Positions 9,252-45,361 of a DNA stretch of 64,000 nucleotides are shown here, piece by piece. Location of the stretch: positions 180,063-244,062 of IMG/VR virus record IMGVR_UViG_3300028603_000018; one strand, given 5' to 3'. The position numbers and the translations under genes were made by a program. The first letter of the stretch is position 1. Each line of letters begins with the position of its first letter. Origin of the DNA: a virus (Duplodnaviria; Caudoviricetes). Under the pieces are notes generated by a model. The model saw nothing but the letters and a program-made list of their open reading frames with translations, did no database searches and was not told the origin of the DNA.

Positions 9252-9367
9252 TAACATGATAGAACTGGTCAAGCTGTCTTTCTTATATAAAGAGGTTAGG
9301 TCTGGATATTCGTGGTATCCAGACCTATGACCCACCTCTACACTTCTTTACTACAAAGGAGATAAAA

Positions 9368-9595
9368 ATGAATATACACTATTCAGGTTTACATAGTATT
9401 ATACTAAAACCAAATGAAAAAACTAAAATCCCTGTTCACATCATCACGTTAAGTAATTACAATGCGGATGAATTCTTAGATTATATTACAGATCAAATCC
9501 ATCAAAACAATATATTGAATATTCATTACAATATTGAAAATCAAAGTACTGATCAACTGAGATACAAACCTCCTGCCTTTAGACAGAGGTGTTAA
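9368..9595 (+). CDS. Small early protein, probably interrupted near its 3' end by the tnpB element
   Basis: SD AAGGAG. The last ~14 codons run through the IS left-end hairpin. Confidence 0.55.
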   Translation: MNIHYSGLHSIILKPNEKTKIPVHIITLSNYNADEFLDYITDQIHQNNILNIHYNIENQSTDQLRYKPPAFRQRC

Positions 9596-19207: not shown

Positions 19208-19330
19208 ATGTTAGATTTGATTAAGAGTAATAGTTACTCAATAGCTATTATATTAGCCTACAGTATTGTTGTCGGTTATACTGAAGGAATAGTTAAGGCT
19301 AAAAAGAGAAAGAATATTCTTTCAGATTAA
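19208..19330 (+). CDS. Small single-TM protein (40 aa), not in the ORF track
   Basis: SD AGGAG. MLDLIKSNSYSIAIILAYSIVVGYTEGIVKAKKRKNILSD. Confidence 0.6.
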   Translation: MLDLIKSNSYSIAIILAYSIVVGYTEGIVKAKKRKNILSD

Positions 19331-19341
19331 AGGAGAGTATA

Positions 19342-19461
19342 ATGCGGATGATGAATTTGTTCGTAGGTGTTATTGTGGGTGCTGCCGTTACTAATTTTCT
19401 TTATGAAAAAGTACGTAAGAACTTCACGTTGGAGGTAAAGAAAAATGAGCGATCACTTTAA
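19342..19461 (+). CDS. Small single-TM protein (39 aa), not in the ORF track
   Basis: SD AAGGAG. MRMMNLFVGVIVGAAVTNFLYEKVRKNFTLEVKKNERSL. Confidence 0.6.
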   Translation: MRMMNLFVGVIVGAAVTNFLYEKVRKNFTLEVKKNERSL

Positions 19462-36275: not shown

Positions 36276-37256
36276 ATGTCAACAAAAATTATAGATTTAA
36301 TTAATGCAACTGACCCTGCTGACTTCCTAGGTAGAGCTAAGGAGGCATTACCTAATAGAATCTTTCCTTCTCAAGAATCTTTAGAAACTCAATCTTTCTT
36401 TAGCCAGATCTTCATGGATTCAATTAAAAAGGAAGCTTTTCTCTCCTTTTTAAAGTCATTAAGAAGTAAGGATATTAGTACTACATCCAACATTAAAAAT
36501 AATATCGCTGAAATTAAAAAGAACATCTCTAAACTAAAAGCCTATCGAGAAAAGAATGCTTTTAGTCTCATGGATTATGAAGATATTGTTATTCCTTTAG
36601 AATACCTACAGACAGTTTTTGCTCCAGTAAGCCGATATCCATTAATCGATGTCGTGACTAATACTCTATGTGTTATTGAATCCATCTCTTCTCTTTTCTC
36701 TAGAGAAGCAGTTCGTGGAAAAGAAGATGGTAAGTTCTATCCAGTTAATTGTGATGATGTAACGACTTATTTACCTGTTAAGCAATTGATCGAACCAGTA
36801 GGTATTGAGAAGTGGAAAGAAGTCGGTATTGATACTGTTGCACTAGAAGATGCTTTTTGTAAATACATTGCTATTTGGACAAGTAATAGTGATGTGAATT
36901 TAACTATTGCTGAAAAAGTAATTGATGACTTAGAAGACTTACCAGTTATTAGTACTTCTGATTGGTCTGATCTTGATACTCTTTTACGAGACAGTGAGCT
37001 TACAGATAAGCTAGACGCTCTTTTAGCGCAATTAGAAGAATACCTACAATCTAATTTTGATTGGATGGATGTTGTTACTAACGTATTAAATAGTACAGAT
37101 GAGCAATCTAGTTTAGTTAATTTAGTTCGTATTACTGATAGCTTATATCAAAACTGGAGAAATCTCCATTACTCTTTTGAAGGTTTAAGTACCTTACTAA
37201 GTTGTTTTATAACCGCGCTCGTGTATTGTACTGAACAGTTCAAAAAACCCGTTTAA
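36276..37256 (+). CDS. Head protein
   Basis: PSQESLE protease-type sites near the N-terminus. Confidence 0.7.
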   Translation: MSTKIIDLINATDPADFLGRAKEALPNRIFPSQESLETQSFFSQIFMDSIKKEAFLSFLKSLRSKDISTTSNIKNNIAEIKKNISKLKAYREKNAFSLMDYEDIVIPLEYLQTVFAPVSRYPLIDVVTNTLCVIESISSLFSREAVRGKEDGKFYPVNCDDVTTYLPVKQLIEPVGIEKWKEVGIDTVALEDAFCKYIAIWTSNSDVNLTIAEKVIDDLEDLPVISTSDWSDLDTLLRDSELTDKLDALLAQLEEYLQSNFDWMDVVTNVLNSTDEQSSLVNLVRITDSLYQNWRNLHYSFEGLSTLLSCFITALVYCTEQFKKPV

Positions 37257-37281: not shown

Positions 37282-39180
37282 ATGTCAGTAAAATTAGATG
37301 ATTTACTGATGAAGTACTATGAAGGGGAGAATACGAGTTCTAGTACAACATCGAGTAATAGAGATTCCATTATTAATGCAGTTAATCAAAAAGGAGATAG
37401 TAATGCTATCGCTGAGCAAAATTCTGAACAAAGTAACACTGGGTCTGTGGTCGGTGAACAAGGAAGCCTCGCCCCTTCAGAAAACCCAGGAGACGCAGAA
37501 TCCGTTATCGACAACCTCATCGACGAAGAACAGCCTGGATCTGGGTCGGGTACTGAACCCAGCGTTCCAAGCACCAGTGGCTCAACCGACAGTAGCGTCG
37601 GAACCGACATCCCAAGTGAAGACAGTGGAGAAGACAATACCGTCGGAGAAGGAGGAAGTCAGTCAGGAGAAGAAACTGGAAACAGTGATCAAGTCAGTAG
37701 TGGAGCAGGAGGCATCAGTCCCCCAGCCCCAGAAGGCAACGAACAAGGATCTACTCCAGAAGAAGTTGGAAGTGATTCAGGAAGCAACTCCTACGAAGAA
37801 GACCACTCCGAAGAAGTCATCGTCAGCCAAGACGACTTCGAAGAAAGCTCCAGCGAAGAAAACAGCAGTCAAAGTAGCGACCAAGTCAGTGGCGAAGAAG
37901 GTAGTGAAGACTTCGACACCGAAGAAAGCGGTGAAGAAGACCTCAGTGAAAACAGTAGCGAAGTAAATGCTGTAGAAGAGGAAACTGAGCAAGCTATTGA
38001 GGAAGAAGTCATTGATGCTCAAGAAGTAGCGCAAGATGTCTTAGCTGAAGCAGGTGATCCTAGTGCTATTGAAGAAGAGGAAAGTCAAGTAGAAGAATCT
38101 GATACAGGGGAAGATTCTAAAGTAGCAGAAACCTCTGAAGAGATTCTTAATACGAAAGCTAATGATAATGATGTCGATAATCTAACAGGCTTACATAAAG
38201 ACGCTGGGATTATTAAACGTGCCTATGAGCTAGATTCTAGAATTGGTGATTATGCTAGGATTATCTTAGACCGTTTTCCATCTGATACAAGTACTGAGAA
38301 TGTAGATGAGTCTTTTCTCGTTATTAGTAGTATTACTTTAGAAACACTAAGTGATGCAGGTAAAGCACTAGTAGGTGATGAATTTGATATTGAACAAGAT
38401 AACATTGTTCAAGAAGCTATTATTCAATCTAAAACTAATCTACTACAATCATTAGACGATAGTATCGCAGTCTTAGCGACTTCTATTGATATTGGTAACA
38501 GAACATTAGAGAAGATTAAAAATAGCGCTTCACAATACCAAAGTGCAGCAACAGAGATTACTTCTCCTCTAGCTCAAAAACTCGTCTCTCTTCTTGGAAT
38601 ACAGGGGGAGTTGGATGCTAATAAGCTAGCGTACTCATCTGTTACTAATGGTGTGGTTGCCGATGTATTTTCTTGGATTAATAAAGATTATACAGTCATG
38701 CTTAAGAATCTAGAAACTGAAGGTGTAAGTAGTGTTGCTCCTCTGGTGCTAAATTCCTTACCTAAGTTTAATATGGCTGATGATTCTGACATCTTAGCTA
38801 GCTCAGAGCTACTTCCTGGTAATCGAGTTATTCAACAAATTGGTAATAAGAGTAATAGTCAAGCAATTATAGATGTCCATAATGAAAGAAGGGATGCATC
38901 GTCTGTAACTGTACCAGGTCAATCTCAATTAGAAAGTATTATTGCTGAAATTGGTGTTGTTACTCGTACAGCTACTATATTCTCTAATAAGCTCAATGGG
39001 TTTAAAGAATCTCTTGAGATCTTTTTTAACTGGTATGAAAAAGATAATACTGGTGAAGTAACGATTAATGGTAGTGGTAATTTAATCAATGCTGTTAGTT
39101 TCATTTTAGCTTTTAGTAATTACCTTTCTAATTACTTACGTGGTTTATCTGCTTATGCTTTACTTCCTGTTGAAGTTTAA
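37282..39180 (+). CDS. Internal head protein (gp93-97-like family) with a very long acidic propeptide
   Basis: About 300 aa E/S/G-rich N-terminal region. The C-terminal domain has the SELLPGNR family motif. Confidence 0.75.
   Translation: MSVKLDDLLMKYYEGENTSSSTTSSNRDSIINAVNQKGDSNAIAEQNSEQSNTGSVVGEQGSLAPSENPGDAESVIDNLIDEEQPGSGSGTEPSVPSTSGSTDSSVGTDIPSEDSGEDNTVGEGGSQSGEETGNSDQVSSGAGGISPPAPEGNEQGSTPEEVGSDSGSNSYEEDHSEEVIVSQDDFEESSSEENSSQSSDQVSGEEGSEDFDTEESGEEDLSENSSEVNAVEEETEQAIEEEVIDAQEVAQDVLAEAGDPSAIEEEESQVEESDTGEDSKVAETSEEILNTKANDNDVDNLTGLHKDAGIIKRAYELDSRIGDYARIILDRFPSDTSTENVDESFLVISSITLETLSDAGKALVGDEFDIEQDNIVQEAIIQSKTNLLQSLDDSIAVLATSIDIGNRTLEKIKNSASQYQSAATEITSPLAQKLVSLLGIQGELDANKLAYSSVTNGVVADVFSWINKDYTVMLKNLETEGVSSVAPLVLNSLPKFNMADDSDILASSELLPGNRVIQQIGNKSNSQAIIDVHNERRDASSVTVPGQSQLESIIAEIGVVTRTATIFSNKLNGFKESLEIFFNWYEKDNTGEVTINGSGNLINAVSFILAFSNYLSNYLRGLSAYALLPVEV
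37403..37966 (+). CDS. Overprinted histone-H1/Hc2-like lysine-rich protein (187 aa) in the +1 frame
   Basis: SD AAGGAG at 37391-37396 and ATG at 37403. The last 60 aa contain 20 Lys and no acidic residue. Host-frame synonymous codons are skewed only within the overlap. Confidence 0.7.
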   Translation: MLSLSKILNKVTLGLWSVNKEASPLQKTQETQNPLSTTSSTKNSLDLGRVLNPAFQAPVAQPTVASEPTSQVKTVEKTIPSEKEEVSQEKKLETVIKSVVEQEASVPQPQKATNKDLLQKKLEVIQEATPTKKTTPKKSSSAKTTSKKAPAKKTAVKVATKSVAKKVVKTSTPKKAVKKTSVKTVAK

Positions 39181-39254: not shown

Positions 39255-40442
39255 ATGAATAATGTAGATCTCACCCAACTGAGCTTAGAAGCTATCGAAG
39301 TTTCATTAGAAGCATTATCTAAACTTCAAGCTATCAATAACAACCTATCTAATCAGCAAGATGAGGTACTTAACACTTCTACCCGGTTTGCTTTAGAGAC
39401 AATTAAGCAAGTGTATGATTTACCTGACGATATTCTTTCGTTAGAAGATAGTAATGATTTACATACAGCTTCTAAAAACGCTATAACGAGAATTTGGGAA
39501 CTTATTCTTAAATGGCTCGCAGCTATTGCTAAAGAAATTAATGAGAAGTGGCATAACCTAGGTATGTCATTAGTAATGGCTGATGAATTATTAAAAAACG
39601 CTGATAGTCGTTTTAGAGCAGCTAAGCAAAGTAGACTTTTTAGAAAGGTCCCTGTAGGCGGAATAAGAAGTCGTAATATTGCTAATGCTTTAAACGTTGA
39701 TAATGATGTTAGTTTTAATAAGATCACTCAAGGAATCTCAAGACTCACTACGACTTTTGGTTCTATAGATAATTTTGTTGATACTGAATTAATTAAACTT
39801 CGTAGCTTTAAGTCCAGTATCTTAAATAAAGACAAGATTGATATTCCAGAATTACCTCTACCTAATCAGATCGATGTACAAGTAGCTCGTAATGAGTTAG
39901 TTAATTATTCTTTAGATGATCGTTATGAAGCTAAGCGATCTGTAACTTTACCAGGTAATAGAGTTTACCTCCACGTTAAATATAAGAACGGTTTAACGTT
40001 AGGAGAAGTAAGGGATAGTACTAGTAATGTTTTAGCTAAACCTTACTCTGATAAGAAGTACGGTATTCATTTATCTAAAAAGAAAACAGATACTACTGTT
40101 GCTTTCACAATCAAGCCATTTAACGAACACGAAATCTTACGTTTATTAACCTTAGCTCGTTCTTTATCTAACGAATTAAAAAGCGCTAACAACAATCATA
40201 GTAAGATTAAATCGACGTTATCTGATCTTCAACAAGTTTTTAAAGATCAAAGTAAACAGACTAATGCTAGTGTTGTTGAATTAAATCAAATAAAGGATTA
40301 TGTAGTAGGTATTGCTAATAACTTATCTGAAATTAGTTTAGATAGTAGAATTTACTTAGTGGGAGTTATTACTCAGCTCTCTCAATTAATATCCTTACAA
40401 GTATCCTTATACGAAGGAAAGATAGAAGGTGAGTATGATTAA
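39255..40442 (+). CDS. Internal head protein (gp93-97-like family)
   Basis: Repeated SLE/ALE sites, RIWELILKWL helix and TLPGNR motif. Confidence 0.75.
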   Translation: MNNVDLTQLSLEAIEVSLEALSKLQAINNNLSNQQDEVLNTSTRFALETIKQVYDLPDDILSLEDSNDLHTASKNAITRIWELILKWLAAIAKEINEKWHNLGMSLVMADELLKNADSRFRAAKQSRLFRKVPVGGIRSRNIANALNVDNDVSFNKITQGISRLTTTFGSIDNFVDTELIKLRSFKSSILNKDKIDIPELPLPNQIDVQVARNELVNYSLDDRYEAKRSVTLPGNRVYLHVKYKNGLTLGEVRDSTSNVLAKPYSDKKYGIHLSKKKTDTTVAFTIKPFNEHEILRLLTLARSLSNELKSANNNHSKIKSTLSDLQQVFKDQSKQTNASVVELNQIKDYVVGIANNLSEISLDSRIYLVGVITQLSQLISLQVSLYEGKIEGEYD

Positions 40443-41770: not shown

Positions 41771-44700
41771 ATGAGTTTACGTAACAACCGTAATGGAATC
41801 CGGACTCTTCGTGCTGCATTAGAATCACTAGACGTTAATAAACATGATGATGTCAATGATGACACGCCTCGTGAATTTGATCCCAATGTCAATGACAAGC
41901 CGAAAGACGCAGAGACTCCTACTAAAGAAGGCGAAATCCAAACGCCTAAAGAACCCGCTGCTAAAGATGTAATTAGTCGGGAAAACGTAGAAGAAGTAGA
42001 AACTGTAGCAGAAGTCCCCATTACAGAAGACGAAACTGTAGTAGAGACTTCAACTGCTGATAATGTAACCTCTACTGGTGTCGATGCCGTAGCAGAAGAA
42101 GGCACTCTGGCAGATGGTATCTCAGCTGCTGGTGAAGGTGCTATTGTTGAAGAAAGTCAGTATGTAGAAAATGCTGGTGAACATAGCGCTCCTGAGATCA
42201 TTGATGTAGAAGAAGAAATCTTAGATGATCTGTCTGAGACTGTTATTCGTAATGAAGAATCACTGGAATCTTTATCGCGTCAGATCAAACTGTACAAGAA
42301 AGTCAAAACTACAGCTAGTTCTATGGAGGATCTCTCCTTACTGGCTATTGGTGATGACATCAAACAAAACTTCAATAAAGTAAAAGAAGCTGTTATTAAT
42401 GCTTTTATTAAACTGCGTGATTGGTGGGTTAAGCATTGGGATAAACTCTCAGCAGTTTGGAATGAAACTGTTATTAAACAGAACTCTCAACAAATCGCTG
42501 CTTTAACAGATAGTATTGATACTGTCCTTACTAATCTTGCAAGCGCTGATATCTTAGCTCAAACACCAATGATGAGGAAGATTAAAAACTTACCTCATTT
42601 TGCTCAAGCCATCTTTGTAGGTGGTGAAGCTAAAGCTCGTGAACTGTTAAAAACACTTTCTTATGTTTCTCGTGAGATTAGGAATAATCCTAATTTAGCT
42701 GATGGTGGATATGAGAAACTGGGTGCAATGGTTGCTAAGCTCAATGAAGAAGAGCTAACTAATGTTGATACAGATTCGAACGTTCGGAAGTTTGTTCGTT
42801 CCTATCCTCGGTATCGTCCTGGTTTAGAGGCTGAAATCCTCACGCTTCAGAAAAACGCAAACGAAGTAGCGCGTGGTTTAACTAAACGTATCGATGAACT
42901 CAAGCGAGAAAGTCGTAGTGTTGAGAGTGGTTCTGAGGATGCTAAACTGAAAAACGAATTAGTTAGTATTGATCAGAAAATCCAATCTAATCTGCTTAAA
43001 CTGATTTCTGGTATTCGTGAGTTAGATAACCTCATTCTTAACATCTTCAAAAAGTACGGTACTGCCGCTAAACCAGAATCGACTGAAGGTTTAGATGAGT
43101 TATCGACTGAAGGCTTCTGGGGCGGCTTCGCAGGCGCTTTCCAGGCCGGTAATATAGGAAGCAGGTACACTAATAAAAAACGGTATGAAATCGAACGGCT
43201 AAAAGAGAAGATTGCTGTAACTACCGACGCACTTCAAAAGCTTGCTGCTGGTGCTTCTAAGGATGAAGCTCAAAAAGGTCTGGAAAATAGCAAAGCTATC
43301 GATATTGCTAATGCTCCAAAAGAGACTTTTAGGGAGTTTATTACAAATAAAGAGAACTGGATTCCTTTCATGGCAGCACTTCGTGGTATGAAGTTAGGTA
43401 GTGAAGCCCAGGATCTAGAGAAGAAGCTAAAGGACCAAGTCAAGCAACTAGAAGCTATTTCTCGTGAAGGATCGACTGAAGGTTTAGACGAAGGTGAAGT
43501 TACTGTCTCTGAAGCAATTACTAACGACGAGATCACTGTTGATGCTGAAGAAGCCGCTGAGACTGGTGAAATTGTTGTGACGCCTGATCCTGCTGATCCT
43601 GTTGAAGCTGATGATAACGAAGGTATTAGTATTCTCGTTGAAGAAGAACCTGTTGTTGAAGCTGATGGTGTTACTGACGTAGTAGAAGCTTCGGCAGAAG
43701 GTGATCTGGAAGCCAAGATTCGTGAGCTACGTAGTAAAGCTGATGAAGCTGAAGCACTTCTTATTCAAGCTCGTTCTCTTATTAATGGTTCAGCTACCGA
43801 ACCAGAGCCTGTTGCTACCGAACCTGAAGCTGCTGTCATCCAAACAGACGTAGTAGAAGATGCATCAGTAGACCTGGGTGAAGATACTGCTGTTACTGAA
43901 GTTGAGGAAGTCGAGGGTAGTGAAGGTGAAGCTGAAGTTGCTGAGGGTGAAGAAGTAGAAGTGGAAGAAATTGATGAAGCTTCTCAAGAATCCCAAACGG
44001 CTGTAGGTGTTGCTGGTGTTACTGAAACAGGTGAGACAGGCGGTGATCCTAGCGAACCTGAAACAGACCAACCTGCTAGCGGTGGTGACCCTGCTGGTGA
44101 AGCAGAAGAAAAAGAAGCTGATGTAGGTGGTAATGCTGAAATCGTTTCTGATCCTACTCTTGATATCGAAGAAGCTGTCGAAGAAGTCGAAGTCGTTATG
44201 GAGACAATCGAGCAAGCTACAAAAGACTTAGGTTTTATCGAACGTGAAATCGGTCGTATCGAAGACTCTAATGAAGTAGGTGGTATTGATTCTCGTTATG
44301 CAGAGAGCTTAAGCGATTCTATGGAAAGTATTGTAGAGCGTAACCGTCTCTCCTTTAAGGTTTCCATGCCTTCGTTAGAATCGTTTGATTCTGGTGTTTC
44401 TACTCGTCTGCGTAATACAGACATGACATTAGAATCCTTTAAAGAGTTTGCGGGTAAATTACGTGAAAAGATTCTTACTGCATTTAATTATGTTGCGAAT
44501 CTTATTAGCAAGGTTTACACCATGACTGCTGGCAAAGCTAAAGAGTTAATGACTAACCTTGAGCAACTGAAAAAAGAACTCAATGACGTCAAACCCAATA
44601 GCAATGCACCTAAGACGATTAAAAGCATTGATCTGGCTAAAGGTTTAAGTATTGATGGTACTGTTCCTCAGGACATTAGTGCTGCTTTAGGTCAACTCCG

Positions 44701-45361
44701 TTCTGTTACTGATGAACTCATTGATGATATCTTTGTAGTTGCTGCGTTTAAAGCTGAGTTTGCTAAGGCTTTCTCTGATAAAGATATTTCTATCGACACT
44801 ATCGTAGAAAAAGCAATTGGTCTAAATAAACTTAAGTATTTCAAAGCAACTGATAAAGAAGATGTTACTGATTACGAAACTGCGACCCTCTTAGGTGATC
44901 GTACTCTGTTCTATACCATCCCTAAAGGTAGTGTAGAGACAAGTAAGGTCGATCTACTTAACGCAGGTATTCGTCATCATGAGAGTGAAACAGTTAGTGA
45001 TGAAGTTACTTTACCCACTGTTCAAAACGCCAAAGTTATCTTAGATAAAGCTAGTGGTCTTGCAGCACGAGTGCAGAAGCTCAAAGATCTCTCAGGTCAG
45101 GTGAAGGCAATGGGTGCGGATGTTGCTAAGACAGTAGAAGGTGTGGTTGGTGAAGAGGAAGAAGTAGCTCGACATCAATCTAGCGTCATTTCCTTACTGC
45201 AACGTACTGTTACTGTATCTGCTAAGCCTGGTATTGAAGCGGCGCGCCTTATCATTAGTGTTAACTATGATGTTGCTCGCTTAATCAAAGCAGTGATTAA
45301 AGCTCATCAAGGTGAAGTCGTAGTAGAAGGAACTAGCAATACTCCTTTGTTAGCTGAATAA
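41771..45361 (+). CDS. Large internal head polyprotein (three modules separated by acidic linkers)
   Basis: ALE, SLE, SME, STE x3, SQE and PSLESF sites. The last module has the TLLGDR family motif. Confidence 0.75.
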   Translation: MSLRNNRNGIRTLRAALESLDVNKHDDVNDDTPREFDPNVNDKPKDAETPTKEGEIQTPKEPAAKDVISRENVEEVETVAEVPITEDETVVETSTADNVTSTGVDAVAEEGTLADGISAAGEGAIVEESQYVENAGEHSAPEIIDVEEEILDDLSETVIRNEESLESLSRQIKLYKKVKTTASSMEDLSLLAIGDDIKQNFNKVKEAVINAFIKLRDWWVKHWDKLSAVWNETVIKQNSQQIAALTDSIDTVLTNLASADILAQTPMMRKIKNLPHFAQAIFVGGEAKARELLKTLSYVSREIRNNPNLADGGYEKLGAMVAKLNEEELTNVDTDSNVRKFVRSYPRYRPGLEAEILTLQKNANEVARGLTKRIDELKRESRSVESGSEDAKLKNELVSIDQKIQSNLLKLISGIRELDNLILNIFKKYGTAAKPESTEGLDELSTEGFWGGFAGAFQAGNIGSRYTNKKRYEIERLKEKIAVTTDALQKLAAGASKDEAQKGLENSKAIDIANAPKETFREFITNKENWIPFMAALRGMKLGSEAQDLEKKLKDQVKQLEAISREGSTEGLDEGEVTVSEAITNDEITVDAEEAAETGEIVVTPDPADPVEADDNEGISILVEEEPVVEADGVTDVVEASAEGDLEAKIRELRSKADEAEALLIQARSLINGSATEPEPVATEPEAAVIQTDVVEDASVDLGEDTAVTEVEEVEGSEGEAEVAEGEEVEVEEIDEASQESQTAVGVAGVTETGETGGDPSEPETDQPASGGDPAGEAEEKEADVGGNAEIVSDPTLDIEEAVEEVEVVMETIEQATKDLGFIEREIGRIEDSNEVGGIDSRYAESLSDSMESIVERNRLSFKVSMPSLESFDSGVSTRLRNTDMTLESFKEFAGKLREKILTAFNYVANLISKVYTMTAGKAKELMTNLEQLKKELNDVKPNSNAPKTIKSIDLAKGLSIDGTVPQDISAALGQLRSVTDELIDDIFVVAAFKAEFAKAFSDKDISIDTIVEKAIGLNKLKYFKATDKEDVTDYETATLLGDRTLFYTIPKGSVETSKVDLLNAGIRHHESETVSDEVTLPTVQNAKVILDKASGLAARVQKLKDLSGQVKAMGADVAKTVEGVVGEEEEVARHQSSVISLLQRTVTVSAKPGIEAARLIISVNYDVARLIKAVIKAHQGEVVVEGTSNTPLLAE
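43078..43488 (+). repeat. 18-bp direct repeat ATCGACTGAAGGTTTAGA (43078-43095 and 43471-43488) with a partial copy at 43102
   Basis: Exact copies encode STEGLD and flank an internal module. Confidence 0.85.

Follow-up and report, generated by a model that had tools for sequence, protein, structure and literature searches.

The stretch of DNA analyzed here (64,000 nt, referred to below as the window) comprises positions 180,063 to 244,062 of the IMG/VR virus record IMGVR_UViG_3300028603_000018, i.e., the final 64 kb of a 244,062-bp phage contig with 35.8% GC. Within the window, a gene for an internal-head-type protein (37282..39180, + strand; 632 aa; here termed the host gene) very probably contains, wholly inside its +1 frame, a second, genuine protein-coding gene that is unannotated (37403..37966, + strand). 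This overprinted gene would encode a basic protein of 187 aa (isoelectric point [pI] 10.1) with 35 Lys, 1 Arg and 15 Asp plus Glu residues and a net charge of +21. The +1 frame of the host gene is free of stop codons from 37313/37319 to 37966, and an internal Shine-Dalgarno (SD) sequence, AAGGAG (37391..37396, + strand), is located 6 nt upstream of the ATG at 37403. An earlier examination of the window (the original prediction) had described this open reading frame (ORF), its SD and start codon, its length of 187 aa and a 60-aa tail with 20 Lys and no Asp or Glu, all of which are present at these positions. The original prediction had further proposed that one stretch of DNA encodes both a polyanion and a polycation; this proposal is strongly supported by an SD-ATG signal found in five lineages, by a codon bias that is bounded by the ORF, and by the substitutions observed among strains.

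The start signal was compared between the window and four divergent metagenomic orthologues of the host gene (P0002/L002, P0003/L003, P0010/L006 and P0004/L004; 26-35% identity in the C-terminal domain), the loci of which all share gene order. Every orthologue shows a +1 ORF at the equivalent place, with AAGGAG-ATG, an N-terminal helix and a Lys/Ala/Thr/Pro tail. The signal reads AAGGAG-N6-ATG at the equivalent position in the window, L002, L003 and L004, and AAGGAG-N9-ATG, after a 3-nt insertion, in L006; the spacers between AAGGAG and ATG vary in sequence among the five loci. The host-frame Gly codon within the SD is GGA in 5/5 loci, although GGA is a rare choice, accounting for 8-18% of Gly codons wherever background usage was measured (four loci). 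In the whole 244-kb contig, merely 14 AAGGAG-N4-8-ATG sites are found.

Codon usage in the overlap

The overlap coincides with a composition island (37430..37966, + strand), where GC content is 0.50-0.55 as compared to 0.33 around it and 74% of the third positions of host codons are A or C (A3+C3), vs. 47% just after the ORF. Among 2487 segments of 100 codons in the 244-kb contig, the overlap is the single most extreme outlier in codon usage, with a T3 of 0.18 (vs. 0.45 ± 0.06), a C3 of 0.40 and a G3 of 0.01. The correlation of relative synonymous codon usage between the host frame and the genome is -0.05 in the overlap, as compared to 0.78 for the 61 acidic codons that follow and 0.93 for the remainder of the gene. 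Asp is encoded by 14 GAC and 2 GAT codons in the overlap, and the first 8 Asp codons beyond the +1 stop are all GAT; the Glu codons comprise one GAG and then 33 consecutive GAA, with GAG reappearing at 37978. The counts made by hand in the original prediction (14/16 GAC, then 8 GAT; GAA throughout the overlap, GAG after the stop) were thus exact. The A/C skew exceeds a plain shift in GC content, as GAG and GGT are avoided too, which a second +1 codon position limited to A or C would predict. The +1 frame sets the host third positions, with A or C specifying Lys, Thr, Pro, Ser, Ala and Gln and not hydrophobic residues, Arg, Gly, Cys or Trp.

In 5/5 loci, the change point of the A/C bias is the +1 stop codon. 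A3+C3 ranges from 0.72 to 0.75 inside the ORF and from 0.42 to 0.47 in the 80 codons that follow, a stretch of equal or greater acidity (P between 3 × 10^-7 and 8 × 10^-5 per locus; Fisher's exact test), and the hydrophobic content of the +1 translation doubles past the +1 stop. In the window, the acidic remainder of the host region that is free of overlap (37967..38148, + strand) provides an internal control, with normal T-ending codons and six +1 stops in 80 codons. The original prediction had also stated that other acidic linkers in the window show no such skew; this holds for the gene at 41771-45361, which contains the only other acidic, hydrophobic-poor gene part of the phage.

When synonymous codons were resampled with the codon usage of the phage, the longest open +1 stretch was 83-88 ± 30 codons as compared to 217-218 observed (P ≤ 0.001), while shuffling of codons within the span of the ORF gave P = 0.135 for openness. 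Openness therefore follows from the odd codon usage, and it is the codon usage that represents the real anomaly. The codon-permutation check of ORF length suggested by the original prediction thus gave a length beyond chance under resampling and within chance under the shuffle inside the ORF.

Selection on the two frames

Variation among strains was assessed using L002, L010 and L011, three variants of one orthologue from three different samples. Outside the overlap, 40 of the 45 variable sites are located at host position 3, and variable host codons are synonymous in 36 cases and nonsynonymous in 7. In the overlap, 9 of the 15 variable sites are at host position 1, 4 at position 2 and 2 at position 3; the variable codons are 1 synonymous to 11 nonsynonymous in the host frame and 8 to 5 in the +1 frame, and the same +1 frame read outside the overlap as a control gives 1 to 42. 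These contrasts are significant (P = 1.5 × 10^-5 and P = 1.4 × 10^-7, the latter for host position 3, i.e., 2/15 inside vs. 40/45 outside; Fisher's exact test). The five amino acid changes in the +1 product all affect its C-terminal tail, and the product is otherwise identical in the three strains. This substitution pattern therefore indicates that the +1 frame encodes a protein and is subject to purifying selection and that the host frame tolerates change in the overlap; overall, these data suggest that the hidden frame is more constrained than the host frame. The phage in the window showed zero variation as compared to a second assembly (L012), an ENA contig of 249,759 bp that carries an identical copy of the gene.

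Divergence between L003 and L006 points in the same direction. At host third positions, the two loci diverge by 0.42 in the overlap, as compared to 0.66 directly downstream of it (P = 2 × 10^-5) and 0.57 in the folded domain, and alignment columns with identical residues use the same codon in 70% of cases in the overlap vs. 37% after it (P = 1 × 10^-4). Identity is 46% for the +1 product and 41% for the host frame in the overlap. The comparison of orthologues that had been proposed as a check thus found the +1 ORF, its SD and suppressed synonymous variation to be conserved. The first 40 codons of the host frame are conserved (37282..37401, + strand; LDDLL..YYE...RDSIINAVNQKG; alignment A2), and the last of them form the internal SD; over these codons, L003 and L006 diverge like an ordinary sequence with one coding frame (0.24/0.20/0.49 at codon positions 1, 2 and 3).

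The host frame is real as well: resampling of +1 codons introduced 8-20 host-frame stops by chance, and the host frame was open in 0/5000 trials at each locus. The host frame would be kept open as it must join the conserved N-terminus to the C-terminal domain.

Several points weigh against reading 37403-37966 as a gene. The codon shuffle within the ORF is one, and another is that the length of the +1 ORF alone is not significant in the orthologues, where it lies within expectation (P = 0.08-0.39). As a +1 stop requires T at the second position of a host codon, a hydrophobic-poor stretch has few +1 stops, and as GAA followed by G reads AAG one base later, any acidic region yields a basic translation in its +1 frame. 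The basic charge of the product and its lack of Asp and Glu are consequently automatic by-products of reading an acidic sequence in the +1 frame. Moreover, the polymorphism test is based on a single lineage with 15 variable sites, the alignment of L003 and L006 crosses low-complexity sequence, and the +1 gene is known from comparative sequence evidence of an uncultured phage.

One could thus hypothesize that the ORF is a functionless by-product of composition with an SD-ATG that arose by chance. Besides the ORF lengths in the orthologues and the shuffle, the long basic +1 stretches in the acidic parts of the cultured phages FLC9, RP31 and LucasX would fit this explanation, as would the ease with which Glu-Gly-Asp/Glu codons form AAGGAG. 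However, it does not account for the SD-N6/9-ATG kept at one homologous site in five lineages, for an A/C bias that ends at the +1 stop in 5/5 loci, for genome codon usage that is lost only within the ORF, or for substitutions that switch from host position 3 to position 1. The ORF-bounded bias and the strain polymorphism already contradict this explanation, and we consider it very improbable.

A nucleic-acid element (i.e., unstructured A/C-rich mRNA, an RNA structure or a DNA signal) could also constrain synonymous sites, with the open +1 frame being incidental; suppressed synonymous change by itself names no reading frame, and the region is strongly A-rich and T-poor. Against this, the variable sites that are tolerated are exactly +1 third positions, with 8 of the 13 variable +1 codons being silent, the bias is three-base periodic and ends at the +1 stop codon, and the start signal is conserved. 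In addition, an Rfam search of the region gave no match at E ≤ 1, and a promoter and terminator scan of the region showed nothing notable. We therefore assign little probability to such an element.

Programmed frameshifting from the host frame, which would fuse the host N-terminus to the basic tail, might be suggested by the fact that the 40 conserved host codons finish right at the +1 start and that the +1 frame is open far upstream of the ATG in the window and L002. However, the +1 frame contains stops 6 codons upstream of the ATG in L003 and 17 codons upstream in L004, and no conserved slippery site was seen, with a canonical SD-spacing-ATG being conserved instead, which makes this explanation improbable as well. 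The last alternative, that only the +1 ORF is real and the head protein starts downstream of 37966 with the acidic frame untranslated, would agree with the 1 synonymous to 11 nonsynonymous codons of the host frame in the overlap but is hardly credible given that the host frame is open in five loci despite 8-20 stops expected by chance, that all indels keep it joined to the conserved N-terminus and the C-terminal domain, that host first positions are G/A-rich like coding sequence, and that +1 third positions are far from genome usage.

The basic product and its possible functions

All five products show a common architecture, with an N-terminal helix, a Pro/Thr/Ser/Gln linker and a Lys/Ala/Thr/Pro tail, and range from 137 to 206 aa, with a pI of 10.1-11.9 and a net charge of +21 to +29. 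The conserved N-terminal amphipathic helix (37403..37456, + strand; MLSLSKILNKVTLGLWSV; alignments A1 and A4) is the sole ordered, alignable element common to them, with the consensus M-[LIT]-x-[LF]-[SN]-x-[ILV]... and a hydrophobic moment of 0.30-0.36 in 5/5 products; the product in the window begins with Met-Leu-Ser-Leu-Ser-Lys. AlphaFold2, run with a five-sequence alignment, places helices at residues 4-15 and, with low confidence, at residues 114-126 (37742..37780, + strand; NKDLLQKKLEVIQ), and the product is predicted to be disordered elsewhere (mean predicted local distance difference test score of 52, too poor for a fold search). The 60-aa tail (37784..37963, + strand) is composed of Lys, Ala, Thr, Ser, Pro and Val, and the bases that encode it specify, in the host frame, the stretch richest in Glu, Asp and Ser; the tails of all orthologues have 16-20 Lys plus Arg among the last 60 residues. 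Tryptic peptides expected from the N-terminal two-thirds of the product include VTLGLWSVNK, TQETQNPLSTTSSTK and VLNPAFQAPVAQPTVASEPTSQVK.

The +1 product had no match in PHROGs, none in Pfam at E ≤ 0.1 and none among PDB sequences at E ≤ 1, and its best score in the ESM Atlas (0.84) was inside the range of shuffled proteins. A profile search with alignment A4 gave two matches only (E about 2 × 10^-3), both of low complexity, to proteins carrying PF07382. The five products are missing from a collection of 15 billion predicted proteins, and a literature search found no published description of this overprinted gene. The histone-H1-like character assigned by the original prediction thus holds for the composition of the tail but not for family membership, as no Pfam, PHROG or PDB match was obtained and the two PF07382-protein matches are marginal. 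Similarity to the Lys/Ala/Pro-rich tails that condense DNA, namely those of the C-terminal domain of histone H1, of chlamydial Hc1/Hc2 and of Pseudomonas AlgP, consists of approx. one Lys in three residues among Ala, Thr, Pro and Ser, no acidic residues and predicted disorder; conversely, homology, the globular domain of H1 and a regular repeat unit are absent.

Lacking a homologue or domain and having a low-confidence AlphaFold2 model, the product offers composition and gene context as the only guides to its function, which weighs against any firm assignment. In overall appearance, the product resembles a binder of polyanions that has a single docking helix. We tentatively favor, with somewhat less than even confidence, a head-internal polycation that serves as a counter-ion for DNA, owing to its gene context, its charge and its scarcity of [ASG]-x-E motifs. 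The prohead protease of SPN3US cuts at ASE-, AVE- and ALE-type sites (PMC10052503). The five products together contain 2 [ASG]-x-E motifs as compared to 9.1 expected by shuffling (P = 0.002), and four of the five have none. As support for a location in the head this depletion is weak, and it may reflect the mere separation of Glu from Ser and Ala along the protein. Under the counter-ion reading, the product would be translated from its own SD on the late head-gene mRNA, the N-terminal helix would attach it to the core or inner body during assembly, and the Lys tail would bind DNA non-specifically, with the protein possibly being ejected with the DNA.

Other functions appear less probable. Pairing with acidic propeptides during assembly is possible but rather doubtful, action on host DNA or on a phage compartment after ejection is unlikely, and binding to anionic membranes is more unlikely still. 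The original prediction had suggested that the basic product could compact DNA and that the acidic propeptide might chaperone it; both suggestions are conjectural. The two products could also be a cooperating polyanion/polycation pair, i.e., a genetically linked charge-exchange device for DNA packaging that would have been born de novo as GAA became AAG in the shifted frame. In such a pair, which we regard as an outside chance somewhat below that of pairing as such, the acidic propeptide would hold and neutralize the Lys-rich protein and bring it into the prohead. Subsequent digestion by the prohead protease would destroy the propeptide, with its many [ASG]-x-E motifs, and spare the polycation, which is nearly without this motif. 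The remaining polycation would neutralize the incoming DNA, order it around the inner body and exit with it at infection.

The internal proteins IPI, IPII and IPIII of phage T4 are basic, are encoded among head genes, enter the prohead by means of a short N-terminal targeting sequence and are packed and ejected with the DNA. The +1 products resemble them in being basic (pI 10.1-11.9), in being encoded in a head cluster of the gp89-gp97 type and in having an N-terminal helix. Sequence similarity is absent. Moreover, whereas the T4 targeting sequence ends in a protease site and is cut off, no conserved [ASG]-x-E or similar protease site follows the helix in the five products, which speaks against a T4-like role. 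The roles of propeptides in T4 are summarized in PMC10052503.

As a gene arrangement, the overlap can be compared to several known systems. Like Rz1 of phage lambda, the embedded gene is complete, has a start signal of its own and is read in the +1 frame of a phage gene that encloses it entirely. In lambda Rz/Rz1, Rz1 is complete in the +1 frame of another gene, has its own start signal, and both products act in one process. Unlike Rz1, a small lipoprotein with a lipobox Cys encoded in a lysis cassette, the +1 product is a disordered polycation without Cys encoded in a head-protein gene; the product sequences contain neither a lipobox Cys nor a signal peptide, and the window product has Lys at N-terminal positions 6 and 10. 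For mammalian GNAS, one mRNA is read in two frames to give XLalphas and ALEX, two proteins that bind each other. This locus is a precedent for partners from overlapping frames, although it is eukaryotic and unrelated in sequence, and an interaction between the two products described here is hypothetical. Overlaps such as phiX174 E in D, B in A, and K, and those of RNA viruses, share with the embedded gene a biased, disordered new product, a narrow range and constrained synonymous sites. As reviewed in PMC8227390 and PMC3494269, the new frame of overprints in small viruses encodes a biased, disordered protein of narrow range and the synonymous sites of the older frame are constrained. Unlike these overlaps, for which limits on genome size are the usual explanation, the gene described here is found in a 244-kb jumbo phage without space pressure, its frame is seemingly more constrained than the host frame, and the two products are oppositely charged, because GAA reads AAG one base later.

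Host gene, relatives and origin

Based on gene order and the Pfam matches of neighboring genes, the phage in the window is a phiKZ-like jumbo phage. Its gene order corresponds to phiKZ gp87 to gp97, with synteny of gp87-gp88-gp89-gp90-gp91-like genes to phiKZ, 201phi2-1, FLC9 and RP31, and the neighboring genes at 39255-40442 and 41771-45361 match Pfam phiKZ_IP. The host gene occupies the position of phiKZ gp92, as judged from its ORF and synteny, and its protein comprises a conserved 40-aa N-terminus, an acidic region of approx. 245 aa and a C-terminal domain of 340 aa. The C-terminal domain matches phiKZ_IP (PF12699) with E = 0.0012 and 18.6 bits, i.e., below the cut-off of 27, and 2/4 members do so; an LPGN motif is common to the host protein and the neighboring true phiKZ_IP member, and hhalign comparisons of the host domain with phiKZ gp92 and with the neighboring phiKZ_IP gene were negative. 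Synteny supports assignment of the host protein to phiKZ_IP, with a Pfam score that is sub-threshold.

A public model of the host protein (P0001, 623 aa) begins at Met10 (37309), while record P0007 has 632 aa. The start at 37282 appears likelier, as the LDDLL motif upstream of Met10 is kept in the orthologues and P0007 has 632 aa.

The acidic part of the host protein is a plausible, putative propeptide removed by protease. Acidic parts of the host proteins contain 12-25 [ASG]-x-E motifs each, and a candidate maturation site, T-S-E-E-I-L (38131..38148, + strand), lies directly before the conserved C-terminal domain; the pattern [ST]-[SA]-E-[KE]-[IV]-L is found at the equivalent position in four of the five host proteins (window, P0002, P0003 and L006). 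Cleavage at this candidate site would strip the entire N-terminal part of approx. 285 aa from the host protein. Propeptides of 111-254 residues are known for internal head proteins of phiKZ and SPN3US (PMC10052503). The host gene resembles this set in its location in a gp89-gp97-type cluster and in a long N-terminus full of [ASG]-x-E motifs like SPN3US gp245, and differs from it in that the cultured relatives have no embedded basic SD-ATG gene and in the sub-threshold Pfam score of the host protein.

Eight cultured phiKZ-like phages served as controls, i.e., phiKZ (gp92-95), 201phi2-1, Psa21, Noxifer, RSF1, LucasX, RP31 and FLC9, and none of them shows an embedded basic gene with SD-ATG. Their acidic parts also have basic +1 frames, but these are interrupted by stops, have a high content of Arg and hydrophobic residues and carry no SD-ATG; FLC9 gp334, RP31 ORF238 and LucasX show long basic +1 stretches without Asp or Glu. 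Of these, FLC9 gp334 is remotely homologous to the host protein (hhalign 90%, E = 1.4 × 10^-6). As the distribution of the +1 gene is narrower than that of the host gene, with a homologue in FLC9 that lacks it, the +1 gene was most likely born de novo by overprinting. Codon usage failed as a test of age, since neither frame of the overlap correlates in codon usage with the genome (-0.05 and -0.17). Birth of the gene could have been simple, as the acidic region would already be open and Lys-coding in the +1 frame, and gaining AAGGAG-N6-ATG would be enough for a polycation gene.

The gene in Burkholderia phage FLC9 (gp334, L007:7780-10068) is annotated as hypothetical and resembles the host C-terminal domain, including the LPGN motif; it adjoins the gp91-like gene and so links the metagenomic clade to cultured jumbo phages of Burkholderia and Ralstonia. 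In the window, the gp91-like gene is separated from the host gene by a gene for 326 aa (36276-37256). All five metagenomic loci have this gene, which phiKZ, FLC9 and RP31 lack at the corresponding place and for which no significant family match was obtained; it represents a marker of the clade. The assembly that holds the phage contig (G000; stated contamination 7.5%) otherwise has approx. 65% GC, with low-GC exceptions C90, C39, C87 and C67 (36-41% GC; 244, 145, 87 and 62 kb), and the phage contig may have been binned with a genome other than that of its bacterial host.

Relatives were found only through an exhaustive HMMER search and a metagenome scan. Blastn and tblastn searches of 50,697 phage records with the host gene, P0002 and the +1 product gave no match, IMG/VR scans with the host protein, the +1 product and alignment A2 found no relatives, a scan of GTDB genome contigs with A3 found none, and word-based protein searches matched only the host protein itself and P0004.

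Additional ORFs and start signals were observed in these loci. In L004, a second AAGGAG-N6-ATG (ATG at 1976) occurs in the same +1 frame directly past the stop of the basic gene (L004:1964-2293); its ORF encodes 105 aa with a very hydrophobic, membrane-like N-terminus, and host A3+C3 is 0.1-0.2 there, i.e., shifted toward T/G. This may be a second embedded gene specific to that lineage, or chance. In the window, AAGGAG-N6-ATG is otherwise found only at 9356-9370 and 19330-19344, with ORFs of 75 and 39 aa in stretches without any ORF of at least 90 aa; as the usual SD of the phage is AAAGGA, these may be small unannotated genes with an unusually strong SD. Antisense ORFs opposite the acidic region in L003 (4154-4867, - strand; 237 aa) and L002 (4388-4816, - strand; 142 aa) were rejected as compositional by-products, because they share the register of the host codons, so that Glu codons read as Phe and Asp codons as Val, because they require only the absence of TTA, CTA and TCA, and because they have not stayed open in the window. 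Such long antisense ORFs over an acidic region could mislead ORF-based annotation.

Fully embedded overlapping genes under selection are a textbook trait of tiny viruses and are usually ascribed to lack of space. The gene described here is embedded in a 244-kb jumbo phage that has no space problem, and it is unusual among embedded genes in this setting, in the opposite charges of the two products and in the better conservation of the embedded frame, as indicated by sequence comparison. The gene is invisible to gene callers; the local, sharp switch to A/C at third positions provides a search signature for further such genes, and acidic low-complexity parts of phage structural genes merit six-frame proteomics. 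Overall, an acidic disordered propeptide would represent a ready-made open frame for a polycation and hence a simple route to gene birth, and the embedded gene would add an unrecognized component to the poorly understood machinery of the internal head and inner body of phiKZ-like phages.

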